The notes below the pieces were generated by a model that was given only the letters and a program-made list of their open reading frames with translations, was not told the DNA's origin and did not search any database. Below, piece after piece: positions 20,387 through 59,784 of a stretch of DNA of 59,784 nucleotides (the first letter of the stretch is position 1; each line of letters begins with the position of its first letter). The DNA lies in the NCBI GenBank assembly GCA_963974885.1, contig CAXBEY010000002.1, positions 1-59,784 on the forward strand, written 5' to 3'. Position numbers and translations under genes: made by a program. This DNA comes from an uncultured Alphaproteobacteria bacterium. Its GTDB lineage: Bacteria > Pseudomonadota > Alphaproteobacteria > Caedimonadales > UBA9215.

Positions 20387-23300
20387 TCAAATGATGCACT
20401 TCACCTGTGAAGGGGCTTCTTTAATAGCCCAGCGCTCAATGGCCTTGATAAGCTTGTCTTTTCGAAGGGGCTTGTTTAAATAATCATCCATTCCGGCGGC
20501 AAGACATTTATCTTTATCACCCTGCATTGCATTGGCTGTTAAGGCAACAATAGGACACTGTTGTTTTGAAAGGATTTTTCGGATACACTTTGTTGCGTCG
20601 AAGCCATCCATTTCTGGCATCTGGCAATCCATAAAAATTAAATCATAATCATTTTTCTTAAATTGTTCGACGGCCTCTTTTCCATTGACGGCCGTTGAAA
20701 CAGTCACACCCATTTTTTTCAATATCGTGCTTAATAGAACCATGTTTGCTTTCATATCTTCAACAATAAGGATATGTACACCTCTGAATCTTTGGGATTG
20801 GTCAATAACAGGTCCGTCTGTTCCTTGGATTAGAGCGTCAACAAGAGCTGGGTTTAAAGCGCGTTTAACAAAAGTACTATCGTTAAGGGACTGCTTTAGA
20901 ATTTTCAAACAATTTTCTAGCATATGAAGTTGCAGAGGCTTTGTTAATTGCGCATCAAGATAGGGTAAAATCTCTTTCTCGTCGATCATGTAAAGGGCAT
21001 TAACTAAGTGAATTTTAAAGGATTTTTCCGTCCCCTTGATGTCTTTTAATTTATGACCAAAGATAATTGGGTCGTTATCAATTAACTTTGAATTTATAAA
21101 AATATAGTTATAGGAAAAATCTTTTTTAGATTTTTCTGTTAAGTGTTGTATGAACTCTTCCTCTGAAGAAACAAAGTGTGTGGAAATAGATAGGTGAGTC
21201 AGATATTGATTTATGGCTTCTCCCCCAAGACCCTCTTCTTCTAGAATAAGAGCACTTTGTCCCTCAAAGGCGATGTCCTTATACTTTTCAACACACTTTT
21301 CTGTTAGGTCGTTGTGTTTTTTTAAGGCCAATTGAAAAAAGAATGTACTTCCTTCCCCAAATTCACTTTTCACCCCTATGTTTCCTCCCATAAGTTCAAC
21401 TAATTTTTCACAAATCGAGAGTCCTAGACCTGTTCCGCCAAATTGCCTAGAAGTAGACTCCTCAGCTTGGGAGAAATTATGAAAAATGTAATCTATCTTA
21501 TCTTTTTGTATGCCAATTCCCGTATCTTCCACTGCAAATTTAAGCTGGGTGGAATGTTTGAGGTCTTGTATGACGGAGATCCTAAGAGCAACATGGCCAG
21601 ACTTTGTAAACTTAATAGCATTCCCAATGAGGTTAATAATCACTTGACGAATACGCCCAGGGTCTCCAATAAGTCCCGATGGTACATCAGGCTCAATAAT
21701 GGAGTAAATTTCGATGCCTTGTGCTAAAGCTCTGACACGAATGAGCTCAAAAATTTCTTCAATAACTTTATGAATATTAAAATTGATGGATTCCAGAAGG
21801 AGTTCATGGGCTTCAATTTTGGAAAAATCTAGAATATCGTTAATAATATCTAGAAGAGAGTCCCCAGATGTTTTAATGGTCTTGGCCCAATAACGTTGTT
21901 CCGCTTTTAACTCAGACTCAAGAATAAGGTCAACCATGCCGAGTACAGCGTTGAGGGGCGTTCTAATTTCGTGGCTCATATTGGCTAAGAAGTTACCTTT
22001 TGCATAGGTTGCGGCTTCTGCTTTTTCTTTTTCTAAACGTAAATCCTCTTCGATTTTTATACGTTGAATAGAGATACCCAGTTGATTAAAGATATTCTCA
22101 ATGGTTTCAGTTAAGCCTTTATCAAATTTAAATTCATTGGTTGAAAAAAACTCTGCCACACCAAAAAATCTATTCCCTGCACGAATAGGATATGCATAAA
22201 CTGCTTTAATACCTGCTTTTCTTAAAAGTGTTCCCCGAATCAACATCTCATGGTTATCCATGTTTTTAATATAATCTGGTTTATTGATACTCATGACCTT
22301 CCCAGGCAGTCCTTCTCCCAGTCGAAAAACCATTTTTGATAGGTCATATTTGAGGTCTTCATCCCCTTCACCGGACCATATGTTAGTGCTTTCTAACTCC
22401 CTTGTTTTAGGATTTAAAACATACATATGTCCACATGTCCAACAGGCATAAGTTGTAATGAGCCTTAAACAGGCAGCAACGGCATCTTCGAAATTCTCCG
22501 CATTATTCGCTGCAGAGCTGCCTTGATAAAGCATGTTCATTAATAGGTTTTCACGGGATTTACTGTTTTTCAGAGAAATCATCTTGTCCTTAAAGATGCT
22601 AAGAGCCTTACCCATTTCAGCGACTTCATCCATGCCCGTACTGGGAATGACCGTATCAAGGTTTCCCGCTGAAACTTCCATCATGCTGCCTTTTAATTCC
22701 TCTAAGCGCCGCGTAATGTTTTTGCCAACAATCCACCACCCCACAAAAAAAGAAATAACAATGGAAAGAAAGGCAATTGTAAAAATGACAGCCTTTCCGA
22801 AAACAATCTCACTTTCAGCGCCATCTTGAATGTCGGTTACCTGCTGTTTTATGTTTTTTTTAAGGCGTAATAAATGAGTAGAAATATCATTTGTAGAATG
22901 CCAAATAGCATCTTTCAATTCTATCAATCGCTTTTCGTTCAAGAGCTGAGCCCGTTTTATTTCAAAAATATTATTCTTTCCGAGGCCACTATTGATTAAC
23001 TCTGCCACAGATTTCTCTAGATCTTTTGCAGAGGGGGTCTGTTTTTTACCTGTCTCTAATAAACCAGCCATATAATTTTTTATTTTGATTTGGCTTGCAT
23101 TAAATCTTTCTTGCAAAGGAGCGAGGTTCTCGATATTTACTAGGTTTTTAGTGAGATTTAAAATGCCAAAGAGCAAGTTTCCCTCAGACTTTAATTCTAG
23201 GGCATATGAAAGGGCTCTCGAGTTTTCTCCTAGAAAGTCTAATGAAAGATTTTTTTTATCTATGGTAGAAAGTCCATAAAGGGCATCATCGGATATAGGC

Positions 23301-23797
23301 GTAATGAAAATAATAAAGTTATTTTGAATTTTTTGCAGTTTAGTGGAAAAATCTAGCAGCATTTTTCTATATTCGATGCGCTCCAAAACAGATGAGTTAA
23401 TATGACCAGCAATATTTTCAATTTCTGATAATTTTTTATTTATGGAGCTTATTTTTAAATCTTTAACTGTTAGAGATTGAATATAATTCAGTGATAAACG
23501 CATTCGTGCGACATGAGTAATCATTTCTATAAAAATATTGGATAACTCATCTTTATTACGAGAAGCAAGCGCTTTATTCACATCAAAATTAAGATCCATA
23601 GAAAATAGATCAAGATCTGATGCGGCGGCAGAAATGGGGGTACTTTCACGGGTGATAATATATAAGGTTTTTGAAAAAGTTTGAAAAAGAGCCCATGAGA
23701 CTAAGGCAAGTATAAAAGCAAAGAGTGTAACTGTTCCAATGACAGCATAGATTTTTGATCTAATGCTAATAAATAAAGGTATGTTTTTGTGAACCAT
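20387..23797 (-). CDS. hybrid sensor histidine kinase / response regulator (TM-sensor-TM-HAMP-GAF-HisKA-HATPase-pseudoREC-REC)
   Basis: Two TM helices flank a ~300-aa helical extracytoplasmic region, followed by HAMP and a GAF-like segment. H-box is FLANMSHEIRTPLN (His codon 21971-21973). N-box is NLIGNAIKFT, G-boxes are DTGIGI and GGTGLGLSI. The C-terminal receiver reads ILIVEDM...LIFMDCQMPEMDG...LNKP. Confidence 0.9.
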   Translation of the reverse strand: MVHKNIPLFISIRSKIYAVIGTVTLFAFILALVSWALFQTFSKTLYIITRESTPISAAASDLDLFSMDLNFDVNKALASRNKDELSNIFIEMITHVARMRLSLNYIQSLTVKDLKISSINKKLSEIENIAGHINSSVLERIEYRKMLLDFSTKLQKIQNNFIIFITPISDDALYGLSTIDKKNLSLDFLGENSRALSYALELKSEGNLLFGILNLTKNLVNIENLAPLQERFNASQIKIKNYMAGLLETGKKQTPSAKDLEKSVAELINSGLGKNNIFEIKRAQLLNEKRLIELKDAIWHSTNDISTHLLRLKKNIKQQVTDIQDGAESEIVFGKAVIFTIAFLSIVISFFVGWWIVGKNITRRLEELKGSMMEVSAGNLDTVIPSTGMDEVAEMGKALSIFKDKMISLKNSKSRENLLMNMLYQGSSAANNAENFEDAVAACLRLITTYACWTCGHMYVLNPKTRELESTNIWSGEGDEDLKYDLSKMVFRLGEGLPGKVMSINKPDYIKNMDNHEMLIRGTLLRKAGIKAVYAYPIRAGNRFFGVAEFFSTNEFKFDKGLTETIENIFNQLGISIQRIKIEEDLRLEKEKAEAATYAKGNFLANMSHEIRTPLNAVLGMVDLILESELKAEQRYWAKTIKTSGDSLLDIINDILDFSKIEAHELLLESINFNIHKVIEEIFELIRVRALAQGIEIYSIIEPDVPSGLIGDPGRIRQVIINLIGNAIKFTKSGHVALRISVIQDLKHSTQLKFAVEDTGIGIQKDKIDYIFHNFSQAEESTSRQFGGTGLGLSICEKLVELMGGNIGVKSEFGEGSTFFFQLALKKHNDLTEKCVEKYKDIAFEGQSALILEEEGLGGEAINQYLTHLSISTHFVSSEEEFIQHLTEKSKKDFSYNYIFINSKLIDNDPIIFGHKLKDIKGTEKSFKIHLVNALYMIDEKEILPYLDAQLTKPLQLHMLENCLKILKQSLNDSTFVKRALNPALVDALIQGTDGPVIDQSQRFRGVHILIVEDMKANMVLLSTILKKMGVTVSTAVNGKEAVEQFKKNDYDLIFMDCQMPEMDGFDATKCIRKILSKQQCPIVALTANAMQGDKDKCLAAGMDDYLNKPLRKDKLIKAIERWAIKEAPSQVKCII

Positions 23798-23945
23798 TTC
23801 TTTGCAGCCTTTTATTTCATTTATTTGTTTTTTTTAAAAAATATTTATTATGTTTGAATTACCATTTATCCATCATTTTTATTCTTTAGGTCATTTGTTA
23901 ATAATTTATTAATTTCTTTCTACAATTATAAATATAGGAAATTAT

Positions 23946-24875
23946 TTGATTGTTCATATTATGAGAATTTTTGAAGATGCCGTGGGATCAGAAATATTAA
24001 GTGAATTTGAAGAAAATCGCCGTACAAAAACCTCTTGTTTTTGTCTCTTATTTCATCTATCTAACCTTGATGCTCCTTTAGAGGCAAGGAATAGAGAGCT
24101 AATCCAAAATTTTATTAAAAATGAGTTTTCAGATTCCTCGGGACTTATCTTTATTATGAACACATCGGACATCATTTTTTTTCTTCCACAAATGAATGCA
24201 AGAGCCATAGAAAAAATCAAAATCAATATGAGCTATTGTTTATCGGATATATTATATGGATCAAAATCAACAGATATAGAGCAATATATTAGCCAATATG
24301 ATCTAGGAACATGTTATGCGGAATGCTACTTAATCCTCAAAGCTCTTGCAGAAAAGCCTCAAAATACTGAACAGACTCATTCAAATATAAAAAATAATGA
24401 TGATACTCAATTAAACAAGGTCACAAAAAAAGACCCAATGTTTCTACAATTTGTTTTAAACAAAAGCTATAATAAGGACATTTTTGTTCCTTTATTAAGA
24501 TCCCGACCTAATCGTTCTAAAAAAATTATCCTCATCATTGAAGACCAAGTCTTTTCCCAGAAAATTTTAAGAAATTGCATAGTCGGTAATTATATTGTAG
24601 AAAGTGCTGAAAATGCGATTATGGGTTTAAGGATGTATCTCAAGCTGGTTCCCGATATTGTCTTTCTCGATTGGCATCTCCCAGATATTAATGGCATTGA
24701 ATTTTTGAAACAAATAACGAAAATAGATTCTGGAGCTTACATTGTTATGTCCACGGCGAACAATACAAGCAATTGTGTTAATGCTGCTCTTTCTAATGGA
24801 GCAAAAGGCTACATTACAAAGCCATATAATAAAGAAAAAATTAATAAAAATCTTTATGCATTTGAGAAACGATAA
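23946..24875 (+). CDS. response regulator with C-terminal receiver and unassigned ~190-aa N-terminal domain
   Basis: Receiver motifs are LIIEDQ, VFLDWHLPDINGIEF, IVMSTA and YITKPY. The TTG start at 23946 lies 5 nt after AGGAA; an alternative ATG is at 23961. The N-terminal domain was not recognised. Confidence 0.8.
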   Translation: MIVHIMRIFEDAVGSEILSEFEENRRTKTSCFCLLFHLSNLDAPLEARNRELIQNFIKNEFSDSSGLIFIMNTSDIIFFLPQMNARAIEKIKINMSYCLSDILYGSKSTDIEQYISQYDLGTCYAECYLILKALAEKPQNTEQTHSNIKNNDDTQLNKVTKKDPMFLQFVLNKSYNKDIFVPLLRSRPNRSKKIILIIEDQVFSQKILRNCIVGNYIVESAENAIMGLRMYLKLVPDIVFLDWHLPDINGIEFLKQITKIDSGAYIVMSTANNTSNCVNAALSNGAKGYITKPYNKEKINKNLYAFEKR

Positions 24876-38984: not shown

Positions 38985-40556
38985 TTAAACAGCAGGCGCC
39001 TCTTTTCCTGAGATCGTTTGAGACTTTTCCTCTGTGTCTTTAGAGGAGCAAGCACGGTTATAGCGCACGGCTAAGGCACCAACACCAATGACCCAGGCGA
39101 GAACAATACCAGCAATAATAACGGCCAAATAAGGGGTGACAATCATAATATCTTGCACGGCAAAGACCGTGAAAATACCAAGAATTGTCCAGCCACCGGC
39201 TGCTTTACCAAGGCGCCCCCCAATAACATCAACAGCGGCTTTACCCTTTGTTTTAAGGTCTTGATCCAAGGGGATATAGGCCATTTCTTTTGTCGGATCA
39301 AAGAGCGCATATTTCGTGCCTTTTGTGAGGATGTTTTGCAACGCCCCAACTAAGACCGCCATATAAGTTGCGGTAAATCCGAGACCCATGACAATAGGAT
39401 TCAGTTGCTCACTAAACAAGACAAGGGCAAAGAAAAGCCCACCGGTAATGGCTAGAACGAGAGGGGTGATAACCGCGCCTGTGAACCAACCAAAACGCCC
39501 AACAATTCCCTTTGTGAGGAAAATGATGCTGATGGTAGCCGCACCGGTTACACGGGAGAAGTTCCCCATAAAGGTATTATAACCATTGGGGTCACCGCTA
39601 AATTGAAGGGAAAGTTGTTTTTTCCAAATCACTTCGATGAGGTTAATGGACATACCATAGCTTAAAACCAAAAGAGCAATAAGGCCAATATAGGGAGAAG
39701 AGAAAAGATACTTAAAGCTCTCCATGACACCCAACTTTGCTTTCTTCTTCTTTGGGGCTTTTGGTGAGGCTGCATCATAATACAAAGGATTTGTCAGCAC
39801 ATTTTTATGCATCCAACGATAGATATACATGGCAATGGAGCCCGCAACCACAATGGTAACACCGAGGTATTTCAAAGACACGCCCCATGCGTCAACATCT
39901 GCTGGAAGGGAGTGGCGAATATCTGAAAACATCACAACAGCAGTCCCAGAAAGCATCAAGGCAATGTTACCAATGAGGACGAATAAGGGATAAAAGCGTT
40001 TTGCCTCAGTAGAGCGTACAATTTCGTTAGCAAACTGCCAAAACAAAAGAGAAATCATGACGCTGCCCCAAAGTTCGGACATCACATAGAATAAAGAATA
40101 AGTCCATACAGCCCAAACAGAGAGCAAGAACTTTACACGAGGAAATTCAGTCTGTAATTCATGGACTCGGCTAATATCAGGATGCAGCATGTCAATGTTA
40201 GGATAAAGGACAAAGGAAAAGATGCCAAAAAAGACAAGGAAACTGGTTACAATACCGTAAAAAAGCTTTTCAGATGAGAACATATTTGTGAGCTTTGTAT
40301 ATAAAACCACAAAGGACATAGCCCCGATCATCACAAAAATTGCCTTCAGGTAAGGAATGGCTTCGGGGCCAGCACCGGGAGCTGTTGCGATCAACGAATC
40401 TTTCGTATCTCGTAGAATTGTGTAATTAAAAAGAACACATAGCATGATCAATGCCAGGGGCAAAAACTTTTTGATTTCAATGGTGTGGATTGGAAAAATA
40501 GCGGCTCGAACCTTGCTAAATGTTGGTTCCGGTGCGCCTGCTTTCACAGTGGACAT
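38985..40556 (-). CDS. tlc: ATP/ADP translocase (Tlc/NTT nucleotide transporter)
   Basis: 523 aa, about 12 TM helices. N-terminal signature FLPLALIMLCVLFNYTILRDTKDSL is typical of rickettsial/chlamydial Tlc proteins. Confidence 0.9.
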   Translation of the reverse strand: MSTVKAGAPEPTFSKVRAAIFPIHTIEIKKFLPLALIMLCVLFNYTILRDTKDSLIATAPGAGPEAIPYLKAIFVMIGAMSFVVLYTKLTNMFSSEKLFYGIVTSFLVFFGIFSFVLYPNIDMLHPDISRVHELQTEFPRVKFLLSVWAVWTYSLFYVMSELWGSVMISLLFWQFANEIVRSTEAKRFYPLFVLIGNIALMLSGTAVVMFSDIRHSLPADVDAWGVSLKYLGVTIVVAGSIAMYIYRWMHKNVLTNPLYYDAASPKAPKKKKAKLGVMESFKYLFSSPYIGLIALLVLSYGMSINLIEVIWKKQLSLQFSGDPNGYNTFMGNFSRVTGAATISIIFLTKGIVGRFGWFTGAVITPLVLAITGGLFFALVLFSEQLNPIVMGLGFTATYMAVLVGALQNILTKGTKYALFDPTKEMAYIPLDQDLKTKGKAAVDVIGGRLGKAAGGWTILGIFTVFAVQDIMIVTPYLAVIIAGIVLAWVIGVGALAVRYNRACSSKDTEEKSQTISGKEAPAV

Positions 40557-49044: not shown

Positions 49045-49956
49045 TCACTCTTTCCTAGACTGGGACCTTTTTGGAAAGACTATAGAATTAAGAAGAGCGT
49101 TCGCTAAAAGCGGCGCGATGCTAATTTGTCGAATTTTGGGATGGTCCTGTGTTTCCTCTGATCTGAGGAGACTATCGGTTATAATCAGGTGTTGGAGGGA
49201 AGACTCTTTGAGCCGTTGGTGAGAATCCTTTGATAAAACACCGTGTGTTGCATAGGCGCTTATGCCTTTTGCTCCGTGCTCTTTTAAAGTTTGGGCTGCG
49301 TTGCAAAGGGTTTTAGCCGTATCTACGATGTCATCTAAAATAAGACAGTCTTTGCCTGCGACATCACCTATAAAGCCTATCACATGGGGCTCTCCCTTAT
49401 GATCTCGGCGCTTTTGAAAGTGCGCCAGGGAAAGATTAAGTCTCCTTGCCATCTCTTTAGTACGGGGGAGGGCGCCTTGATCTGGAGCAACGAGCACACT
49501 GTTGCTCAGGTCAAAGTGTTGGCGGATATCTTCCTCTATTAGGGATGTCGGTTGTAAGTTTTGGACCGGAATGTCGAAAAAAGGCTCTATGTCTTTTGAG
49601 TGTAAGTCTAAGGTGATTATTTCAGTGGCCCCCGATTCTTGAAAAAGTTTTGAAATCGTTTGTGCTAGGGAATTCTGGCGAGCATAGTAAAAATAAGGCA
49701 AAACAGCGACGATATGTTGCGCCCCTTTTTGCCGAGCGTGATCAAGGATTAAGAAAAGTTCCATCAGGCTCTGGTGCGCTGAAATTGAGGTTGTTTGAAG
49801 GGCCGCAACGTACTCCCCTTGAAGAGAGTCTTGAATTTTAATCATTATTTCGCCATTTGGGAAATATTTTATTTCCTCATGGACAACCTCGGTTCCCAAA
49901 ACCTTTGCTACACTGTTAGACAGAGCTTTATTGCTATTGCCAGAAAGCAGAATCAT
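49045..49956 (-). CDS. prs: ribose-phosphate pyrophosphokinase
   Basis: N-terminal LLSGNSNKALS...YFPNGEI and PRPP-binding loop LILDDIVDTAKTL. 303 aa. Confidence 0.9.
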   Translation of the reverse strand: MILLSGNSNKALSNSVAKVLGTEVVHEEIKYFPNGEIMIKIQDSLQGEYVAALQTTSISAHQSLMELFLILDHARQKGAQHIVAVLPYFYYARQNSLAQTISKLFQESGATEIITLDLHSKDIEPFFDIPVQNLQPTSLIEEDIRQHFDLSNSVLVAPDQGALPRTKEMARRLNLSLAHFQKRRDHKGEPHVIGFIGDVAGKDCLILDDIVDTAKTLCNAAQTLKEHGAKGISAYATHGVLSKDSHQRLKESSLQHLIITDSLLRSEETQDHPKIRQISIAPLLANALLNSIVFPKRSQSRKE

Positions 49957-50084
49957 TGTTAATCTTAACCCTATGGTGAACTATTTTTTACCTTATCAAC
50001 TCTCCTAAATGATGTAAATGCATTGGATAAGGAGAGATGTTTAGAAATTTTAATGACTGATAAAAATGGTAGGATAATACTTTA

Positions 50085-50885
50085 ATGCATGTGTCGTTCC
50101 TTAAAAAATTTACTTTTTTCCTCTGCCTTGTTGGCGGTTTTTTTCTCATGGGGTGCTCAGATGAACAAACTTCATCCGTCGATAAGGAGGGGAAAATTAT
50201 TGAAATCGTTATGGGAACGTCTGCCGATATGCCTCCATTTGAGTTCTATGAGGCCTCTGAAATTGTCGGTTACGATATTGATATTGCAAAGGCGATTGCC
50301 AAGGAAATGGGCTTTAAGCTTCAGGTGCGGGATATGGACTTTAGTGCCTTGATCCCGGCCCTTCAATCTGGGCGTGTTGACTTTGTTATGGCCTCCATGA
50401 CCCCAACGCCAGAACGTGAAAAGAGCATTGATTTTTCCGAGCCCTATTTAACATTGCCTTTGGCTGCCATGACCCTTGAGCAAGATGCGGTTACAACTCA
50501 AAAAGGATTGAGCAAAAAAAGGGTGGGCGTGCAACTAGGCTCAACACATGAACAGTTTGCAAGGGATGTTGCTAGTCGTGATAAAACCGTAAAAGTTCGG
50601 TCCCTTAATAAACTTTCAGAGCTTGTCCAAGAATTGATTTCAGGGCGTTTAGATGTGTTAATCATGGAAACAAAGACGGCCAAGGCCTTTCAACAAGTCA
50701 ACCCTAATCTAAAAGTTGCCGCCTTGGAAGACAACACGGTTTCTTTTGCACTTGCTTTTCCTAAGGATTCAAAGTGGCGGGAAAAATTTAATGTAGCCAT
50801 AGAAAAACTACAGATTTCAGGGCGTTTGGATGAAATTAGGGCTGCTTGGTTTTCCGACTATAAAAATAAATTAAAGGGCCTATGA
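50085..50885 (+). CDS. amino-acid ABC transporter substrate-binding lipoprotein
   Basis: Lipobox LMGCS and a family-3 SBP layout (GYDIDIAKAIAKEMG, DFVMASMTPTPER). Confidence 0.85.
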   Translation: MHVSFLKKFTFFLCLVGGFFLMGCSDEQTSSVDKEGKIIEIVMGTSADMPPFEFYEASEIVGYDIDIAKAIAKEMGFKLQVRDMDFSALIPALQSGRVDFVMASMTPTPEREKSIDFSEPYLTLPLAAMTLEQDAVTTQKGLSKKRVGVQLGSTHEQFARDVASRDKTVKVRSLNKLSELVQELISGRLDVLIMETKTAKAFQQVNPNLKVAALEDNTVSFALAFPKDSKWREKFNVAIEKLQISGRLDEIRAAWFSDYKNKLKGL

Positions 50886-51541
50886 TTTTTCATTTTGACC
50901 GCATTGTTGACCATATCCCTTTTATCTTAAAGGGGACTTTTGTCACGCTTCAATACACTATTTTGGCCCTCTCCATTGGCCTTGTGCTAGGGGCGGTTTT
51001 TGCCCTGATGAAGTTGTCCAAATCAGGTGTTTTGAGATCTTTTGCAACCTTTTATATCTCTATTTTTCGAGGAACACCTTTGTTGGTGCAACTCTCGTTG
51101 ATATACTTTGCAACACCTCAACTTATTGGCTATCAAATCACAGCTCTTGAAGCCGGTTTATTGGCCTTTTCCTTAAATTCAACCGCCTATGTTTCTGAAA
51201 TTATTCGAGCAGGCATTCAGGCCGTTGATAAAGGACAATTTGAAGCAGCAGAATCGTTGGCCATCCCTTACCACAAAGCGATGCTTTGCATTATTATGCC
51301 CCAAGCCATTCGCAATATTCTCCCAGCACTGGTCAATGAAGCCATTAACCTTTTAAAAGAATCAGCGCTGGTTTCCGTCATTGGTGAGATGGATTTGCTG
51401 CGTCGAGCAAACATTGTTTCTTCACAGACTTTTTTATATTTTGAACCTCTTTTATTTGTGGCTGTAGTTTACTATCTATTGGTTTCGATTTTATCGCAGC
51501 TCTCAAAACTCCTTGAAAAAAGGTTAAAGCGCAGTGATTGA
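50882..51541 (+). CDS. amino-acid ABC transporter permease (HisM/GlnP type)
   Basis: 5 TM helices and an EAA-like loop ([23 protein letters not shown]). Overlaps the neighbouring genes by 4 and 8 nt. Confidence 0.9.
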
Positions 51542-52256
51542 ATTCAAAAACTTAACAAAAATCTTTTCCGGCCAAAAAGTGCTTAATGGCGTTGAAGGGC
51601 ATGTGGGAGAGGGCGCTATTGTGGCGCTTTTAGGGCCGTCTGGTTCTGGAAAGTCAACATTGTTGCGGTGTATGAATCTCCTTGATCGGCCAGAGGGGGG
51701 AGAGGTCTTTATTTCACAAGCGAACATTTTGGATCAAAAGTGTGATATTCGCCATGTCCGTGAAAATATTGGGATGGTTTTTCAGCACTTTCACTTGTTT
51801 CCCAATATGACCGTCCTTGAGAATATTGCCTTTGCGCCCCAACAGGTTCTTCATAAATCCCAAGCAGAAGCCCATGGCATTGCTGTTGATTTGTTAGAAC
51901 GTGTTGGTTTATCTGAAAAGGCTGATGCTTATCCGGCACGTCTTTCAGGGGGGCAAAAACAGCGGGTAGCCATTGCAAGATCTTTGGCCATGAATCCCAA
52001 AGTCATGCTTTTTGATGAACCAACCTCTGCCCTTGATCCTGAAATGGTGAAGGAGGTCCTTGATGTTATCCAAAGCCTTGCAAAGGATAATATGACCATG
52101 CTGATCGTTACTCATGAAATGCAGTTTGCCCGAGAAATAGCTGATGAGATCTGGTTTCTTGATGAGGGAGATATTGTCGAACGTGCGCCCCCTGAGCTTT
52201 TTTTCACAAACCCGTCTTCAAAAAGAGCCAAAGCTTTTTTAGATAAAGTTTTGTAA
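51534..52256 (+). CDS. amino-acid ABC transporter ATP-binding protein (GlnQ-like)
   Basis: Walker [10 protein letters not shown], signature LSGGQKQRV, Walker [13 protein letters not shown]-loop VTHEM. Confidence 0.95.
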
Positions 52257-52406
52257 TTTTTAAAAAATCTTGTTCTTTTCCTAGTAAAGAGGTATAAAAA
52301 ATTTGTTTTTGCATGCTGTCAAAGTAGGCGAAAAAATAGAAACCTTTAAAAAAAATGTGTGCCCTTGTCTTCTTTTACATTTTCTATGCCCCTTGCAAAA
52401 AGCAAA

Positions 52407-53117
52407 ATGACAGACAGCTTAAAAAAGAATGTTTTTATTACTGCAGGGAATCGTGGTATTGGCTATGCTCTTGTTGAGGCCTATCTAAAGAAAGGCTATT
52501 GCGTTTATACGACTTTTCGCAGTGTTCAGAAATCTTCACTGCTCCTGCAGAACAATCATCCCCACCTCTACAAGATTCAACTGGATATAAAAAACTCTGA
52601 TTCCTTAAGGGATATTAAGTCTTTTTTGAGTGACAGCCCCATTGACATTATGATTCATAATGCCTGTAGTTTTGGATATCAGGCCAATGAGTTAAACACT
52701 CTACAATCAGAAGAGTGGCAAGATAGCTTCTACGTTAATACTATTTTTCCGATCCAACTATCGGTGATGCTTAAGGAAAATATAAAGGGATCTCAAGATA
52801 AAAAGGTTGTTTTTATTTCTAGCCGTCGCGGTAGCAATACTGTGAATATTACCGATGCTTATAAAGGGCGCTATGCTTATCGGTCCTCAAAAGCAGCCCT
52901 TAACTCAGCGGCTTTGGCGCTTTCCCAGGATTTTTCTGATGATGAAATTTCAGTTTTAATTTTACATCCAGGGCGTGTTGCGACAGAGGTGACAAATTAT
53001 GATAGCATCTCACCGTTTAAAAGCGCGCGTCACATCGTTAAGTTGGTTGAAAAGTTAACCGTTGAAGGGACAGGACAATTTCTTTCGGCAGATAGTGGAA
53101 AAAAAATCGCGTGGTAA
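52407..53117 (+). CDS. SDR family oxidoreductase
   Basis: Cofactor motif ITAGNRGIG, NAC motif, catalytic YRSSKAALN (Y-x3-K). Start set at ATG 52407 (MTDSLKKN). Confidence 0.8.
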   Translation: MTDSLKKNVFITAGNRGIGYALVEAYLKKGYCVYTTFRSVQKSSLLLQNNHPHLYKIQLDIKNSDSLRDIKSFLSDSPIDIMIHNACSFGYQANELNTLQSEEWQDSFYVNTIFPIQLSVMLKENIKGSQDKKVVFISSRRGSNTVNITDAYKGRYAYRSSKAALNSAALALSQDFSDDEISVLILHPGRVATEVTNYDSISPFKSARHIVKLVEKLTVEGTGQFLSADSGKKIAW

Positions 53118-53219
53118 TTTATAGCCCTTTCTCTTAATGCCAAAGAAAGCGTTAGGAAAAATGTAAAATTTCCCTTGCCAAAAGGCATATTTTTTCTTAT
53201 GGTAAGATCATCCAAATGT

Positions 53220-53295
53220 GGGGCCATAGCTCAGCTGGGAGAGCGCTACAGTGGCACTGTAGAGGTCAGGAGTTCGATCCTCCTTGGCTCCACCA
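53220..53295 (+). tRNA. tRNA-Ala (GGC)
   Basis: 76-nt cloverleaf GGGGCCATAGCTCAGCTGGGAGAGCG... Anticodon loop is GTGGCAC, the G3:U70 identity pair is present and CCA is encoded. Confidence 0.9.
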
Positions 53296-53601
53296 TTTTT
53301 ACCATTTCCCAATATTTTCAATTGAAATTAAACGCCCTTCTTGCTTTGCATGGTGAGTTCTTCTGCCCGACAAAAAAGGCTCAATTCATTTCTTTTGTTC
53401 ATATTTTCTTAAACCACTTTTTATCATAGGTAGATGATCTCTTAATCACGATCGCCTAGCTTTATTTTTGCCAAAATGAAGCCCATCCTATCTCTTTAAT
53501 ATCAGCGCCTTGGGGCATTTATTTGCCGCGGGGGTGGGATTTTTGTCAAGTAATTTATATAAATCATAAATAAGTTATTTGTCTTTTTATCGTTATTTTT
53601 A

Positions 53602-53630
53602 TTGACATATATCAAGAGGTTTTGTTTATT
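53602..53630 (+). promoter_or_regulatory. candidate sigma70-type promoter upstream of the giant ORF
   Basis: TTGACA (53602-53607), a 17-nt spacer, then TTTATT (53625-53630). This implies a 5' leader of about 155 nt. It is a pattern match only. Confidence 0.25.
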
Positions 53631-53790
53631 AGTTTTGTCTTCAGGGGCAAAAATTCTGGTTTAGGGTCAAAGACTTTTAACGCAGATAAGGGAGGCCCTG
53701 ATGGATTAAGCCCAGAAAGGTAAAACCACCAGAAGAGTAACAAAAATACCAAAGGGTATTTTTAAAAAATTAAATAGGAAGTAGCGTAAA

Positions 53791-56700
53791 ATGCGTAATA
53801 TATCGTTGTCAAAATATCTCTCTAAATCTGTTCACCTTTTTACCATTTTCGTTTATCTTTTTACCTTCCTTGGTCCAAGCCTTGCTCTGGCAAGCCATGC
53901 CCCTACCTATGCGGAAACCGTCAATGGAGAGTCTGAAAAACCTCGCGCTAAAACCACCCCCTCCACGCCGCCAAAAAGCGCCTTTACGGGAAAATCGCAC
54001 ACCTTCGATGACCTTCCCTCAGCCCTTCAAGACACCTATCATCGCTTTACTTTAAAGGTTTCTCAAGATCCTTTAAGTGGGGGCATTCACTTCCGCCTAC
54101 GAGATTTTGAAGGCACAAGGAACCTTTTCCATCACGTGCTGCCCAATGATAAAAAGGACTCTCCTTTTACGCCCCTCCTAGAAGACGGAACCCACACAGG
54201 CTTTACCGTAGATGTGCCCGATGTTGGACAGATTCAATGCGATTGGCAAGGGAACTTAAAGCTGGTCGGTCTCCATAGGATCTCCCCTGAAACGGCTCCC
54301 CTTGCTTTGCTCTTAGCCACCGATGGCAGCGTTGATTTTTCAGATATTACCTTTAAAAATTTAGCCCTCCATGCCAAGAACGTAACCTTTGTGCAGGGTA
54401 TTAAAATCCAAGAAGAGTCTGTTTTTGATATTGACGTCCTTGACCTAGCTGAGTCTGGTTTTGAAAACACAAAGTTGATGAGTTTTCTATCAAAAACACG
54501 GTTTATTTCTAAGAAACGTTGGCGTAACAAAGGGAAAATTGTGGGGGAAAAATCCCTTGATTTTGATCGCTGTATGTTTTCAAATCCGGGGATTGTTTAT
54601 GGCAAAGACCATTTAACTCTTTCCTCCGGTTTCTTTGATAATGATGGAGGCGCCTTTCATGGAGAGAAGGGGACCAGCCTTAACCTAACGCGTTATTTTT
54701 ATAACAAGAGAGGCGGAAAGGTTTCCTCTGGCAAGGTCACCCATGTTCATTTTCATAAAAAACAAGAGGGTGATCTTGGAGACATCCACGGAGAAGAAGT
54801 TGTTTTAGAGGATTTATCTGGGGGGTTTCATTTTTCTTTGCAAAAGGGCCGCGTTGAAGCCACCCACAGCACCACACTGATCGGCAAACATCCAAGCACA
54901 AAAGGCGTTGATTTTGTGACCCCTCAGTTGATTTTGGATGCCCCTGATTTTTCTTTAGGCAAACAAAAGCATGTTGAGCGCACCGTTGTTAAGCGCTCTA
55001 AAGGTCAATTTTTTACGTTGACCAGCCCTTATAAAACCGCCGGCACCTTGGAGTTCTGGCAAAAAGACCTCACCACACGAAAAGCCGTTCAAGCTGCCAT
55101 GTTGGCCCGCTTTGGCGATGAAAAAGGCAAGATGCCTGCACCCCATGGGAAGATCAGTTTACAATCTTCTGTGAAGGCCGCTGGAGGACTGAAATTCTTC
55201 ACCCCCCATGCCAAAGTCTCCTTGGGCGACGAGACAAAAGAAGCTCTCCTTGAGTTTTTCCATAAACAAGGATGGCTCGAAGCTTATGCCACAGAGTTTG
55301 ACCTTGAAAAAGGCACCCTTGTTGCCGAAAATGCCTATATCCACGCCCCGGGCAGTATTAAAATGGGGCGTTTGGTGAAAGACGAAAACGAGGATCTCTT
55401 TTCCCAAAAACTTTATAAGAAAAATGGCAGCACCGTTCTCGTTCGGGGCACCACAACCTTACGGGGCCCGTGGCACCACCGAGCCGATTTTTTAACGTCT
55501 TTCCTTATTCTAAATTCCCCAAAGGATCATCTCTTTGAAGCGGGCTCTGCCCGAGTACTGAAAGATTGCACACTCAAAGGCGGCGGTGATTTAGACTTAA
55601 TGCGCAAAAGGACAGAAATATTTATATTGCGTCCAAACCTTTCTAGCGGCCATGGAACCAGGGAACGTCTAATTTCTTTTATCAGCGGAGCACCTGCAGA
55701 ATTTTTGGTTGGAAATTATTTTAATAATGATGGTCAGGTGAATAACCATTCCTCTATTATGCATGCCTATAACGTGAAAGAGGCGCACAAAATTAAAAAC
55801 ATTGATATAGAGGCCTGTAATACTAATCTCAATTCACAACATATAAAATACCAGTTTAATTATTTTAATTCTTATTTTCCGATTAGTTTTAAAGAAATGG
55901 TGACTGACCCCTTTCATAATTTTAAGGGTTTTTCTTTCAAACAAAGCAGGGGCTTAGATCAATACATTGGTTCCGGTCTTTTTTCCGGCATGATGTTGGG
56001 GGTATTTGCAGCCCTACAGGAAGGCTTGAATGGCAATGGAGCCGTCACCTACCCCGCCCAGACAAGCTTTGGCGAAGGGGTAACCGTCTCCCCCAATGAA
56101 GAGGGCAAGACAACCCTTGGAGGGAACTTCCAAGCGCCGGCCACCATTGTCCTCATTCCCACAGGAAGTGCCGAGATTGGCACGAGGCCCAGTGCCACAC
56201 TTCAAAAGGTTCATACCCACAGCCCCTTGCAATCTCTGGTGCCCGAGGCCTTTAACCTTCATACCCTCACCATGGCGGAGCACCTCCGCGACCTTATGGC
56301 GGAACAACCAGAGGTGGAGACCTTCTTTAAGTTCCATCCGCGCTTTTGGTTCGAGGCTGATAAAGCTCAACAATTCCATAATAAACTCCGCCCTTATGTG
56401 CGGGCTCAACGTCCCCAGGGTGGCTTTTATACCCCTGAAGGACAGGTGCTTTTCACCATTAGCCCCGACATGCTCATAAGCCAAGTTCAAGACCAAGCCC
56501 TTAAGGTTTTTGGCCGCGGCACCATTGAGGACAATCGTAAAATCGATGAAGAACAAATCCTTGAATTACATCAAAACTTTGTTAATTATTTGAAGGAACT
56601 TGAGGAAGTCTATGACCCTGAAACCGGCAAGAAAATCACCCTCCCCGTTGGCCCTCTTTCCTTAGCATCTTTGGGCCAACATAACAGCCGTCCTGCCCCC

Positions 56701-59700
56701 AAAAAGCCTTGTATTGCTTATGCGGCGGCCATGAATGAGGAAGGAATCCTCGAGCTTTCTCCGATGATTTGGATGCCAAAGAAAATGCATGCTAAGCATG
56801 GCATTACAACTCAGCTGCTCTTGAGCATTCCCCAGGGCATGAGGTTCAAAGACTTTTTAGCTTATGCCATGAGAAACCCCCTGCTCGCTGCTGGGACTGA
56901 GAAACTCATCACCGATCACCCCCATATGATCTCCCAATTGGATGAAGCCGCTGAGCGTTATCGCGACGAAAATAAAATTAGCGAAGACGATGAACTGCCC
57001 AAAGCTGGGCCCGTGACCTTTGAAGGAGACATTGACGCAAAGACGTTCATGGGCTTCAACACGGGAGACGTTATTTCTCACGCGGACATTACAGCGGAGG
57101 ATGCGTCTTTAGTTTCTCTTTTTGGCAGTGTGATCATGAGCTCTCTTGTGGGGCGTGAGGGGTCTGGGGATCATTTTCACGATAAAATTGTGGCCCAAGC
57201 CCGTATCAAAGCGGACAAGCTCATCAACATATTCGCCGGCCAAGATATTATCTTCCAAGGGGCTGAAACCATTTCAGAGGTCTCGACCCACATTTTGGCT
57301 CTGGCGAATCTTATTGACGTTCCAGCGGTCCTCATCAGCCAACGCACACAACAACTCAGCGGCAAATACAAAGGCTCAGAAACCTGGATACACGTCCACA
57401 ACCATGTCTCAAAACACAGCTCCGGGGGCGAATACGATCAACAAACCCTTGGCGCCCAAGATCTTCATGGTGTGGAATACGATGCAGGGAAATTGAAAAT
57501 CACCGGCAAGGGTAAAGTAAACTTTGCGGCTGTTTTTGAGCAACTTATCCACAGCTCTCAGGGGACGAAAAAGTCCCGTTTCAAAACCAAAAACCGCCAA
57601 GAAACCACCAGCACATCAACGTCAAAGGGGGGCGTTATTGGCTCTCGTGATGCGGCAGCTGAAATCACCAGCGAGGACAGCGATTTGATCTTTGAGGCTA
57701 TTGCCTTTAAGGGGAAATACGGCGCCATTATTAAAGCCCTCAAAGGGCGGGTTGAGTTTCTCTTGGGTCATAATACCAAAAATGTGTCCTCCATGAGCAG
57801 CTCTAGCGATCCGATGTGGATGAAGAGCACGCAAAAAACAGAAGAGCACCTCACCTTTACCATACCCACAACGGAAGGACCCATTAAGGTTCATTCCCTA
57901 GAAACTCTTCTCCAATCCGTTGATGGCCAGCACCTTGCGTTCTTGGATGACCTCGATCTGACGGAAGGGGGATCCTTGATCAGCCAAGTCATCAAAGAAA
58001 TCCACGAAAGCCATTCAAAAACAGTCCAAGGCCCCGGTATGGCTTTGGCGGTTATCGTTGCCGTTGTTGTGACCTGCTGCACCGGTGGTGCTGGGGGGCC
58101 TATTGCGGGCGCCCTTGCCAATGCCCTTGGAGGATTCATGAGTGCTGCCCTAGCACAGGCTTTATCCGTGGCCTTCGTGGCGGCTCTTGATACAGCTCTT
58201 ACAAATCTAACCCTAGACACCATGTCCAATGGGGGCAATGTTGGCAAGGGCCTTAAGCAAATGGGCAGCAAGAAAAACCTTAAAGCCATGGGAACGGCTG
58301 CGTTAAAATCTGGTGGCGGTAAGGCTAATACGGCCATAGGGGCTGTTGGTGAAAAAATCGTGCAATCTGCTATGAATGCTGGCATAGATACGGCCATTAA
58401 TGGCGGTAAATTTGGCAAACATTTTACAACAAACCTGAAATATGCTGGCGCCTCGTTGTTTGTGGATGGCGTTATTGATGAAGTTTCAGGGAGTGCAAGC
58501 AACGATAACAAGGCCCAACAAGGCCCACCTCTTGATTTTGGTGAGCGCGCTCAGGAATTCATTGGAAGTGCAGCCTTAAACGTCGGGCGTCAATTTGCGG
58601 TGAATAGCCTGGCGGGAGAAGACCCCAAGGATGCGTTTATCAAAGCTGCAGCGGCTTTCGCGGCTCACGTTGCTTGCTTCGGTATTGCCTCTGGCTTCGA
58701 TGGCCTTAAGGGCTTTTTTGCCAACGATAACGATGCAGAAGACAACCATAAATCCCGCGGTGCGTCTTCTTCCGAGGGGCGTCCTCAAACGCCAGAAGAA
58801 CGCGCTCAAGAAGAACGAGAACGCCGCGACCAATCTCTCCACGACATCATCGATGGCATCGACTATGAGGAAGAAAGCACCCGCGAGGGTGATGGCCCCC
58901 GCAAAGGAAAAACCCGCCAAGATGGAAAAACAAAACCTTCTTCTACGAGGCCTACAAAAGGTGACGATATACCTTTTGATTTTTCCTTTGCAACAAGTCA
59001 AAGTGTGTGGGATGGCATTGTCGATGAAGAAGAAAAAATTCAGGATGATAGCGGCATTAGTTACCGTTTTTCAGGTGAGAAGCGTGGGCGTTCCAGTGAA
59101 CGTGTAGAGACTTCTTCACGCTCAAGAAGCTATAGCCCACCACGTATAAAAGATACCTACTATGAAGAAGGCACAGATTGGTTCAGCTTAAAAGTACGAA
59201 GTGCTTATGAAGCAAAAGAGCGTATTAGCATTGAGAATTTTGATCCCAATGATCTTTTGCCGGCCTTTGGGGCTCTGAGCATTGATGGTGTTATTTTAGT
59301 CAATGACGGCCTTGATAAGGTGACTCTTGGCGGTTGGTCTACCGTTACCGAGTTTTTAGATAAGGTCGCCAATGGAGCAAGAACTTATACACGTCGAGGG
59401 TCTCGTTTTGTTTCAGGAGATCAGCGGTCTGCTCAAAACCTCGGGGACGGTGTTTATGTTGTCCTAAGCGTTGTTGGTGGAAAAGGCCTTAAATCGATCA
59501 AGCTCTTCAAAAAAATGGGCAATGCAGTAAAAAACCTGAGAAAAGCTAAAACAGCGGAAGCGGCTAGATTTTGGGATAAAAAACCTATAAATTTTAAGGG
59601 AAACAAGATTTTTCAACGTGATGATTTAATTAGGCCAGATTTTCTTACTGGAACAAAAGGACTTACGAATTTAGACAGAATGAAATTAGGAAGGGCTCCG

Positions 59701-59757
59701 CTTAGTTTAGATGGTAATCCTATTAACTTGGTAAGCGACTCAGGAAGCCCACCCTGA
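53791..59757 (+). CDS. giant secreted CdiA/FhaB-like polymorphic-toxin-type protein (1988 aa)
   Basis: Single uninterrupted ORF with signal peptide ...LGPSLALA/SH. The N-terminal half is long and predicted to be beta-rich. A Gly/Ala-rich DUF637-like block follows (GPGMALAVIVAVVVTCCTGGAGG...NGGNVGKGLKQMGSKKNLKAMGTAALKSGG), then a charged linker and a C-terminal nuclease-toxin-like lead-in. The coding call is confident; the function is inferred. Confidence 0.85.
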   Translation: MRNISLSKYLSKSVHLFTIFVYLFTFLGPSLALASHAPTYAETVNGESEKPRAKTTPSTPPKSAFTGKSHTFDDLPSALQDTYHRFTLKVSQDPLSGGIHFRLRDFEGTRNLFHHVLPNDKKDSPFTPLLEDGTHTGFTVDVPDVGQIQCDWQGNLKLVGLHRISPETAPLALLLATDGSVDFSDITFKNLALHAKNVTFVQGIKIQEESVFDIDVLDLAESGFENTKLMSFLSKTRFISKKRWRNKGKIVGEKSLDFDRCMFSNPGIVYGKDHLTLSSGFFDNDGGAFHGEKGTSLNLTRYFYNKRGGKVSSGKVTHVHFHKKQEGDLGDIHGEEVVLEDLSGGFHFSLQKGRVEATHSTTLIGKHPSTKGVDFVTPQLILDAPDFSLGKQKHVERTVVKRSKGQFFTLTSPYKTAGTLEFWQKDLTTRKAVQAAMLARFGDEKGKMPAPHGKISLQSSVKAAGGLKFFTPHAKVSLGDETKEALLEFFHKQGWLEAYATEFDLEKGTLVAENAYIHAPGSIKMGRLVKDENEDLFSQKLYKKNGSTVLVRGTTTLRGPWHHRADFLTSFLILNSPKDHLFEAGSARVLKDCTLKGGGDLDLMRKRTEIFILRPNLSSGHGTRERLISFISGAPAEFLVGNYFNNDGQVNNHSSIMHAYNVKEAHKIKNIDIEACNTNLNSQHIKYQFNYFNSYFPISFKEMVTDPFHNFKGFSFKQSRGLDQYIGSGLFSGMMLGVFAALQEGLNGNGAVTYPAQTSFGEGVTVSPNEEGKTTLGGNFQAPATIVLIPTGSAEIGTRPSATLQKVHTHSPLQSLVPEAFNLHTLTMAEHLRDLMAEQPEVETFFKFHPRFWFEADKAQQFHNKLRPYVRAQRPQGGFYTPEGQVLFTISPDMLISQVQDQALKVFGRGTIEDNRKIDEEQILELHQNFVNYLKELEEVYDPETGKKITLPVGPLSLASLGQHNSRPAPKKPCIAYAAAMNEEGILELSPMIWMPKKMHAKHGITTQLLLSIPQGMRFKDFLAYAMRNPLLAAGTEKLITDHPHMISQLDEAAERYRDENKISEDDELPKAGPVTFEGDIDAKTFMGFNTGDVISHADITAEDASLVSLFGSVIMSSLVGREGSGDHFHDKIVAQARIKADKLINIFAGQDIIFQGAETISEVSTHILALANLIDVPAVLISQRTQQLSGKYKGSETWIHVHNHVSKHSSGGEYDQQTLGAQDLHGVEYDAGKLKITGKGKVNFAAVFEQLIHSSQGTKKSRFKTKNRQETTSTSTSKGGVIGSRDAAAEITSEDSDLIFEAIAFKGKYGAIIKALKGRVEFLLGHNTKNVSSMSSSSDPMWMKSTQKTEEHLTFTIPTTEGPIKVHSLETLLQSVDGQHLAFLDDLDLTEGGSLISQVIKEIHESHSKTVQGPGMALAVIVAVVVTCCTGGAGGPIAGALANALGGFMSAALAQALSVAFVAALDTALTNLTLDTMSNGGNVGKGLKQMGSKKNLKAMGTAALKSGGGKANTAIGAVGEKIVQSAMNAGIDTAINGGKFGKHFTTNLKYAGASLFVDGVIDEVSGSASNDNKAQQGPPLDFGERAQEFIGSAALNVGRQFAVNSLAGEDPKDAFIKAAAAFAAHVACFGIASGFDGLKGFFANDNDAEDNHKSRGASSSEGRPQTPEERAQEERERRDQSLHDIIDGIDYEEESTREGDGPRKGKTRQDGKTKPSSTRPTKGDDIPFDFSFATSQSVWDGIVDEEEKIQDDSGISYRFSGEKRGRSSERVETSSRSRSYSPPRIKDTYYEEGTDWFSLKVRSAYEAKERISIENFDPNDLLPAFGALSIDGVILVNDGLDKVTLGGWSTVTEFLDKVANGARTYTRRGSRFVSGDQRSAQNLGDGVYVVLSVVGGKGLKSIKLFKKMGNAVKNLRKAKTAEAARFWDKKPINFKGNKIFQRDDLIRPDFLTGTKGLTNLDRMKLGRAPLSLDGNPINLVSDSGSPP

Positions 59758-59784
59758 TGGCACAAAAAAAGCCCCGAGCCTTTA

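Follow-up and report, generated by a model that had tools for sequence, protein, structure and literature searches.

How does a giant CdiA-like toxin reach the cell surface when no gene for an outer-membrane partner lies next to its own? This question is raised by a gene at the end of contig CAXBEY010000002.1 (assembly GCA_963974885.1) of an uncultured alphaproteobacterium, of which positions 1 to 59,784 of the forward strand were analysed, a stretch of 59,784 nucleotides (nt) referred to as the window in the following. What defines CdiA toxins is that they leave the cell via a dedicated CdiB partner which recognises a two-partner secretion (TPS) domain, and CdiA-type polymorphic toxins as such are already well described. 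The window gene is a single open reading frame (ORF; 53791-59757, forward strand) encoding 1988 amino acids (aa), and its start codon was confirmed by aligning the DNA of five homologous loci, all of which keep the ribosome binding site (RBS) and the sequence ATGCGT. An earlier reading of the letters without database searches (hereafter the sequence-only reading) had reported the same 5.97-kb ORF of 1988 aa and had assigned to it the architecture of a two-partner secretion or contact-dependent inhibition (CDI) toxin. We found that this assignment holds for a CdiA-type delivery half and a variable nuclease tip and is not supported on the transport side, where no TPS domain was detectable and no TpsB gene was adjacent in seven family loci. 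Taking the evidence together, we consider it likely that the window gene belongs to a rare family of CdiA-like polymorphic nuclease toxins and is a copy that was gained by horizontal transfer and has since been damaged.

The relationship to CdiA is carried by residues 1080-1691 (57028-58863, forward strand), which comprise an FHA-2-like region and a Gly/Ala-rich DUF637 domain. Pfam DUF637 matched the window protein with 29.3 bits (cut-off 26.6). A family profile of residues 1080-1691 aligned collinearly with residues 1223-1877 of P0005, a canonical CdiA with TPS, Fil_haemagg_2 and DUF637 domains (E = 1.6e-61), and the sequence-only reading was thus correct in placing this late region alongside the pre-DUF637 part of CdiA proteins. 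Eight family members were retrieved by phmmer with this region. DUF637, DUF637-N and PT-VENN are pre-toxin domains of CDI and type V secretion systems (T5SS) (Zhang et al. 2012, PMC3482391). Judged by these profile comparisons, residues 1080-1691 are homologous to the FHA-2/DUF637 delivery module of CdiA. As in the CdiB/CdiA/CdiI system (type Vb), the window gene encodes a giant, putatively Sec-exported, beta-helical protein with a homologous FHA-2/DUF637 module.

Proteins related to the window protein were rare. A word-indexed search which covered 5.8 billion proteins found only five homologues (P0001 to P0005). P0001 (2054 aa) showed 50% identity over residues 1-1673 of the window protein and was unrelated thereafter (BLASTP), P0002 and P0003 matched it over ~200 residues at its start and in the DUF637 region, P0004 shared residues 1104-1530, and P0005 was matched by BLAST to residues 1401-1545. 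When a profile of residues 1-450 was searched exhaustively against 1.84 billion representative proteins, no more than 58 were retrieved, the majority of which matched from their own N-terminus. Among the 18 long members of this set we found DUF637 in seven, a full LHH domain in three, Fil_haemagg and Fil_haemagg_2 in two each, and PT-VENN and TPS in one each. All genomic matches were metagenome-assembled genomes (MAGs) of alphaproteobacteria, labelled as Holosporales, Paracaedibacteraceae, 'Rickettsia typhi' or unclassified. The label 'Rickettsia typhi' belongs to a lake MAG with two family copies (L169 and L172, CAMDPW010000067/68) and looks implausible for an environmental MAG. Searches of NCBIfam and of PDB sequences with the whole window protein gave no match, and the only two Pfam matches were DUF637 and a weak LHH. 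The sequence-only reading had named TPS (Haemagg_act), Fil_haemagg, DUF637 and PT-VENN as the models to search with; DUF637 was found above its cut-off, but Pfam TPS/Haemagg_act, Fil_haemagg, Fil_haemagg_2 and PT-VENN did not match the window protein even at E <= 10. The central region (aa ~421-1079; 55051-57027, forward strand) is conserved with P0001 at 50% identity.

Beyond the delivery module, the window protein and P0001 diverge from a defined point at about residue 1673. The following region (aa 1674-1980; 58810-59730, forward strand) is variable within the family, which bears out the modular C-terminus claimed by the sequence-only reading. The opposite pattern, a gene kept in synteny among relatives and with a constant C-terminus, was not observed, as tips differ between homologues and the gene is not syntenic. 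In the window protein the variable region closes with the first third of an LHH domain (aa ~1920-1980). The Pfam model for this nuclease domain (Tox-LHH, PF14411; HNH/EndoVII) matched residues 1959-1980 with profile positions 1-22 of 76 and 14.4 bits, below the cut-off of 23.3. Residues 1920-1980 can furthermore be aligned to two relatives with full LHH domains, P0024 (DUF637, PT-VENN and LHH) and P0031 (LHH), where they cover the N-terminal part of the domain and a conserved flank upstream of it. The alignment runs up to the residues 'NPINL', after which P0024 and P0031 go on with 'HH...' for a further 58-70 residues. The homology stops exactly at residue 1980 (nt 59730). The window protein is therefore like Tox-LHH proteins in this stretch, but unlike them it is missing the catalytic LHH motif together with the rest of the profile.

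Other members of the family carry different tips, with candidate immunity genes behind them. No Pfam toxin model matched the tips of P0001, P0002/P0003 or P0004. The P0001 gene is directly followed by a gene for Imm26 (28.2 bits, cut-off 23.3), and the P0004 gene by two orphan DUF637-CT (C-terminal) modules that alternate with small ORFs, including one of the SUKH/SMI1 type (L083:17544-24366). In the MAG that encodes P0004 (JAIEPD01) a second family copy lies on another contig (L170), and the ORF 3' of that copy shares 49% identity with one orphan module. Small ORFs also overlap the stop codons of P0002 and P0003 and are 75% identical to each other. The sharp switch to a variable C-terminal toxin, the immunity genes of homologues and the orphan CT/immunity cassettes are all shared with CdiA. 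A VENN motif, in contrast, was not found in the window copy, which sets it apart from CdiA, while PT-VENN passed its threshold in P0024 and in the family protein of a Paracaedibacteraceae MAG (L168). At the level of domain comparison, the evidence supports the view that the window protein is a polymorphic toxin whose delivery half is of the CdiA type.

The abrupt end of the LHH homology coincides with the start of foreign sequence. From position 59731 onward the window reads GTAAGCGACTCAGGAAGCCCACCCTGATGGCACAAAAAAAGCCCCGAGCCTTTA, which we interpret as the terminus of a mobile element (59731-59784, forward strand) that begins GTAAGCGACTCAGG. These last 54 nt provide the giant ORF with its final eight codons and its stop codon, which lies 27 nt before the end of the window, as the sequence-only reading had stated. 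Five TARA scaffolds end in the same 44-47 nt, with a boundary identical to the base and unrelated flanks; they have 40-45% GC and carry housekeeping genes. On one of them (TARA_R110002095_G_scaffold207634_1; L174:1-60) a thiolase ORF is broken off by the element at '...CTTINK', immediately ahead of its catalytic Cys motif. Active disruption of genes by the element seems to be under way in this population. Inverted repeats of the IS66 family start with GTAAGCG (PMC11946415, PMC12888890). The segment at 59731-59784 shows this terminal signature as well as the multicopy behaviour of IS66 elements, and it is likewise inserted into coding sequences; unlike described IS66 elements it is visible over 54 nt only, and tnpA/B/C, a mate repeat and an 8-bp target duplication were not observed. 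No mate end was found within the window.

We also considered that the 54-nt end might be a technical or assembly artefact and that the gene is simply cut by the end of the contig. The five further copies all derive from a single TARA sample, they all point outward and are placed no more than 47 nt from the end of their scaffold, and the terminal 27-mer had no match in 185,579 GTDB representative genomes, all of which would fit such an origin. Against it stand the IS66 signature GTAAGCG at the very start of the segment, its natural-looking A-run and GC stem, the joining of six unrelated flanks at one exact base, the interruption of the thiolase ORF before its catalytic motif, and the GC content of the scaffolds, which is similar to that of the window. 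Contigs running 44-54 nt into a repeat before they stop are moreover what we would expect of de Bruijn assemblers at multicopy elements. An artefact is in our opinion very unlikely, and a candidate IS66-type element inserted into the nuclease domain is the reading that we follow here.

A second lesion was found in a sister assembly (L166; ENA ERZ3421850 NODE_3518, coverage 4.9x), which is 99.5% identical to the window over 49531-55915. It lacks 16 bp of the central region (55521-55536), resulting in a frameshift and a product of 584 aa. The same assembly also lacks 9 bp (51817-51825), in frame, in the gene for an ABC-transporter ATPase. Because the catalytic LHH motif is missing, the window copy should no longer be able to act as a nuclease toxin. 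It may be decaying or may be kept only as a surface protein; we consider it disarmed and probably decaying.

The question of export leads to the N-terminal end. The protein starts with a signal peptide (aa 1-34; 53791-53892, forward strand), whose end ALA|S can be read from the sequence and which is predicted by AlphaFold2 (AF2) as a helix of residues 6-35, in agreement with the Sec-type signal peptide noted in the sequence-only reading. The signal peptide is unusually conserved, with the consensus MRxxSLSKYLSKxVHxFTxFVYLFTFLGPSLAxA in four proteins, FxFQTLWPSxxFA in the wider subfamily, and a proline at position 29 that is 95% conserved in family alignments. It is followed by a beta module (aa ~80-225; 54028-54465, forward strand) that defines the family in the profile search (58 of 1.84 billion) and that was modelled with a predicted local distance difference test score (pLDDT) of ~65-88. 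Next comes a beta-helix of ~19-residue coils with the pattern hydrophobic-x-N-x-G (aa ~228-420; 54472-55050, forward strand). Four successive coils carry the family-conserved residues N246, N265, N284 and N305, which are spaced by 19, 19 and 21 residues. The AF2 model was built with an alignment of 21 sequences and showed an all-beta helix (pLDDT 74.8 overall, 85-95 for residues 240-420); it replaced an earlier model from five sequences with a pLDDT of 54.6, for which the fold search gave noise only. The long beta-rich region foreseen by the sequence-only reading is thereby recovered, but two other claims of that reading did not hold. Its Pro-rich segment consists of only four prolines in ~30 residues. 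The string 'FSNPGIVYG', taken there as a relic of the TPS motif NPNGI, lies on one of the four conserved N-x-G coils, where P0001 reads FSNLSIVHS, and was therefore rejected as a TPS relic and assigned to the generic repeat of the beta-helix.

Is the N-terminal module then a highly divergent TPS domain, so that the window protein would be an ordinary CdiA of a type Vb system whose TpsB/CdiB is encoded elsewhere in the genome? When the AF2 model of residues 1-440 was compared with the PDB by Foldseek, TPS secretion domains accounted for five of the six best matches, namely HMW1 (2odl), two chains of EtpA (8cpk), HpmA (6q0p) and HxuA (4i84). These matches were not significant: the best one (2odl) had E = 0.07 and a probability of 0.51, all lay above E = 0.001, and template modelling (TM) scores were 0.2-0.26 at a root-mean-square deviation of 13 Å. 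The coils behind the module are of the FHA style, relatives score above the threshold of Pfam Fil_haemagg_2, and DUF637 and PT-VENN have been described only in T5SS toxins (Zhang et al. 2012, PMC3482391), which all fits with a divergent TPS domain. On the sequence level, the picture is different. Pfam TPS/Haemagg_act gave nothing at E <= 10, a search of the PDB with the family profile retrieved no TPS chain, hhalign of the family profile with a profile built from three bona fide TPS domains gave a probability of 0.6%, and family alignments showed neither the NPNL nor the NPNGI motif at the N-terminal end of the window protein. One protein whose own N-terminus looked TPS-like by eye (P0036) matched the family profile only through internal repeats (profile positions 214-431). 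A TpsB gene adjoined the toxin gene in none of the seven loci, and CdiB homologues are scarce in Rickettsiales (PMC9111745). With no match by sequence and fold matches short of significance, membership in the TPS family could not be established, and the N-terminal module cannot be recognised as a TPS domain. That it is a divergent one whose transporter is encoded elsewhere in the genome is nevertheless a real possibility, even though we would put it at less than an even chance. The window protein can further be compared with FhaB/TpsA adhesins, with which it shares the beta-helix of ~19-residue coils with conserved Asn and Gly and relatives that reach the Fil_haemagg_2 threshold; it differs from them in that it matches no Fil_haemagg model, has no TPS domain and ends in a toxin tip.

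The genomic surroundings offered no transporter either. In seven independent family loci (the window, L001, L082, L083, L165, L168 and L171) a TpsB gene never adjoined the toxin gene, which is a further difference to CdiA, where the toxin is accompanied by cdiB; this result applies to linked genes and, for the window copy, to the upstream side. A clustering of all flanking ORFs from 12 loci showed no recurrent partner gene, and only resolvases, immunity candidates and orphan modules recurred. The P0001 gene (L001) has ParA and resolvase genes upstream and the Imm26 gene downstream. The P0003 gene (L082) is preceded by a resolvase and a toxin-antitoxin pair and followed by a 269-aa ORF overlapping its stop codon, two lipoprotein genes and a VirB-type cluster, and the P0004 gene (L083) by the orphan modules and small ORFs described above. 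A copy of the UBA9215 lineage (L165) lies downstream of infC and thrS, the copy of the Paracaedibacteraceae MAG (L168) among genes for ClpX, trigger factor, a transposase, PhzF and YmdB, and that of L171 among genes for UvrB, aconitase and a polyprenyl synthetase.

The VirB-type cluster (L082:11673-19826), encoding TrbL/VirB6, VirB8, VirB9, VirB10 and VirB11, led us to consider a dependence on a type IV secretion system (T4SS), in which the proteins would be cargo or accessories of a conjugative-type T4SS or plasmid, i.e. surface adhesins or toxins exported or displayed via VirB-like machinery. P0003 is encoded directly upstream of these genes, P0001 adjoins ParA and a resolvase, and resolvases were seen in two loci. 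As the Bordetella Ptl system illustrates, a toxin that has been exported by Sec to the periplasm can leave the cell via a T4SS. Yet T4SS genes were present in only one of the seven loci, where the cluster opens with no more than the C-terminal P-loop half of a VirB4/TraG-type ATPase, which suggests that the cassette entered a transfer region that was already degraded. The copies of the window, L165, L168 and L171 are situated amid housekeeping genes, and there is no conserved flanking partner. Given a linkage in a single locus and beside a truncated VirB4-type gene, we judged T4SS dependence to be quite unlikely. The cluster also includes an 865-aa Cys-rich secreted protein to which no family was assigned.

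What does travel with the gene is its own promoter/leader. A region of about 230 bp upstream of the window gene (53550-53790, forward strand) is conserved on the DNA level in five loci, with equivalents at L001:2960-3170, L082:3300-3533, L084:380-606 and L165:4390-4729. It contains a TTGACA block, a GCAGTGGCAAAAT block, a near-invariant GATAAGGGAGGCCCTGATG motif ~90 nt before the start codon and the RBS. No Rfam family matched this leader, which could be a regulatory element. Its conservation amid unrelated surroundings shows that the gene travels as a cassette and brings its expression signals along.

In the window this cassette is located behind a tRNA gene. The tRNA-Ala(GGC) gene (53220-53295, forward strand) was detected by ARAGORN and by the Rfam tRNA model (60.2 bits), and the 495 bp between tRNA and ORF have 33.9% GC compared to 43.5% in the window and 47.1% in the gene, so that both the distance of about 500 bp and the AT-rich spacer of the sequence-only reading were accurate. 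The 5' neighbours are genes for PRPP synthetase, an amino-acid ABC transporter (substrate-binding protein, permease and ATPase) and an SDR protein, followed by the tRNA; between PRPP synthetase and tRNA there is no Omp85/TpsB gene, and the SDR gene is, as that reading had said, the nearest one upstream. Three loci of the UBA9215 lineage (L179, L180 and L182) are collinear with ~45.5-53.3 kb of the window, including the SDR and tRNA-Ala genes. In blastn comparisons they showed 93% identity over 53164-53304 and nothing downstream, i.e. a break 9 nt after the 3' end of the tRNA. In L180 the tRNA-Ala is followed by an EamA transporter gene (empty site), and the family copy of this nearest relative lies elsewhere, beside infC and thrS. 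The synteny break together with the empty site supports an insertion at the 3' end of the tRNA, in line with the island position that had been proposed. The sequence behind the break (53305-53549) is a locus-specific spacer with 38% GC and no homology to the tRNA-Ala loci of the relatives or to other family loci. There is no integrase ORF between the tRNA and the giant gene, and the repeat of the tRNA-Ala 3' end that might have marked an island border was not found within the window. Further upstream, the ABC-transporter ATPase (51534-52256) had its best matches in the genome scan in Firmicutes and cyanobacteria (~57-64% identity) and not in alphaproteobacteria, which may reflect the scan's pattern choice or hint at a foreign transporter operon.

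The host is, by its gene content and protein identities, a Holosporales-type alphaproteobacterium of the endosymbiont type. Its SucA is 91, 90 and 84% identical to that of three MAGs, the nearest being Holosporales UBA9215. The window further encodes an NTP/NDP exchange transporter of the ATP/ADP translocase type (38985-40556, reverse strand; 541.8 bits). Such transporters are a hallmark of energy-parasitic intracellular bacteria, and its presence is consistent with an intracellular lifestyle of the host. The lowest GC content of the window (30-38%) was seen at 20387-24875, where the gene for a BarA/LetS-like hybrid sensor kinase of 1136 aa lies next to that for a response-regulator protein of 309 aa.

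For such a host, a eukaryotic target has to be considered, with the toxin serving host addiction or manipulation as proposed for the Paracaedibacter-like symbiont of Bodo saltans. The lineages that carry the family include obligate intracellular groups, and that Holosporales symbiont has large polymorphic toxins of novel types, equipped with nuclease tips and accompanied by orphan modules, for which host addiction was proposed (Midha et al. 2021, PMC8163844). The delivery half of the window protein is, however, homologous to the FHA-2/DUF637 module of CdiA, dedicated immunity genes, like orphan cassettes, are a typical feature of antagonism between bacteria, and Pfam detected no eukaryote-like domain in the window protein. 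A eukaryotic target thus appears unlikely to us. The toxins of 'Ca. Bodocaedibacter vickermanii' (Midha et al. 2021) and the CRCT/CRCA modules of Rickettsia (Verhoeve et al. 2022) are still instructive for comparison, as they are likewise large toxins of intracellular alphaproteobacteria with an N-terminus without known homology, nuclease tips, immunity genes and orphan modules, and with cdiB absent or scarce. They are set apart by their descriptions, which do not contain the N-terminal module, the conserved signal peptide or the CdiA-type FHA-2 homology of the family described here.

Returning to a CdiA-like toxin directed at bacteria, the following mode of action might be proposed for an intact family member. 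The protein would be exported to the periplasm by Sec and would cross the outer membrane via a transporter encoded away from the toxin gene, with the conserved N-terminal module acting as the export and anchoring determinant that is recognised by this unlinked transporter. It would then be displayed on the surface as a beta-helical filament. On contact, the FHA-2/DUF637 module would pass the C-terminal nuclease into a neighbouring Gram-negative cell, and sibling cells would be shielded by the cognate immunity protein. In CdiA, FHA-2/DUF637 delivery reportedly acts on Gram-negative target cells (Ruhe et al. 2018, as cited in PMC9111745). A more far-reaching version is that signal peptide and N-terminal beta module represent an undescribed route of outer-membrane export and anchoring for filamentous CdiA-like toxins without a co-encoded TpsB. 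Endosymbiont-type alphaproteobacteria would in that case have coupled the FHA-2/DUF637 machine of CdiA to a different secretion entry point. We put this forward tentatively and consider it rather unlikely.

Several points weigh against the view of the window gene as an acquired and damaged member of such a toxin family. The gene is known from its sequence alone. No outer-membrane transporter was identified, so that the export step is pure inference, and an obligate intracellular bacterium has few bacterial neighbours, which makes the ecological target unclear. An immunity gene is not visible for the window copy, as the window ends inside the inserted element. The assignment of this element to the IS66 type is based on a 7-nt terminal signature and multicopy behaviour, and neither a transposase nor a mate end nor a target duplication was seen in the 54 nt of the window or the 44-47 nt of the scaffolds. 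Its five extra copies all derive from one metagenome sample and are located at scaffold ends, as technical sequence could be. Finally, the 16-bp deletion stems from a contig of low coverage (4.9x) and could reflect faulty assembly.

In intracellular alphaproteobacteria, large haemagglutinin-like toxins that lack cdiB have been noted before, a scarcity of CdiB has been reported for Rickettsiales (PMC9111745), and novel polymorphic toxin systems were described in a Holosporales symbiont (PMC8163844). We found no description of an N-terminal module with a conserved signal peptide joined to a CdiA-homologous delivery half, nor of the consistent absence of a linked transporter in such a family. In comparison with CdiA, the family is distinguished by this family-specific module and conserved signal peptide, by the lack of a detectable TPS domain, and by a range restricted to alphaproteobacterial MAGs, several of which are assigned to endosymbiont orders such as Holosporales or Rickettsiales. 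As the window copy is disarmed and probably decaying, its direct value is limited, but the family still poses a real secretion question: it keeps the delivery half and the toxin/immunity logic of CdiA, while the front end is replaced by a rare module. If this module is an independent export determinant, the toxin-translocation apparatus of CdiA would be portable between secretion routes. This would provide a handle on how giant surface toxins are deployed in bacteria largely without CdiB, such as Rickettsiales and Holosporales, and would bear on whether bacterial competition or host addiction is the role of polymorphic toxins in obligate endosymbionts.

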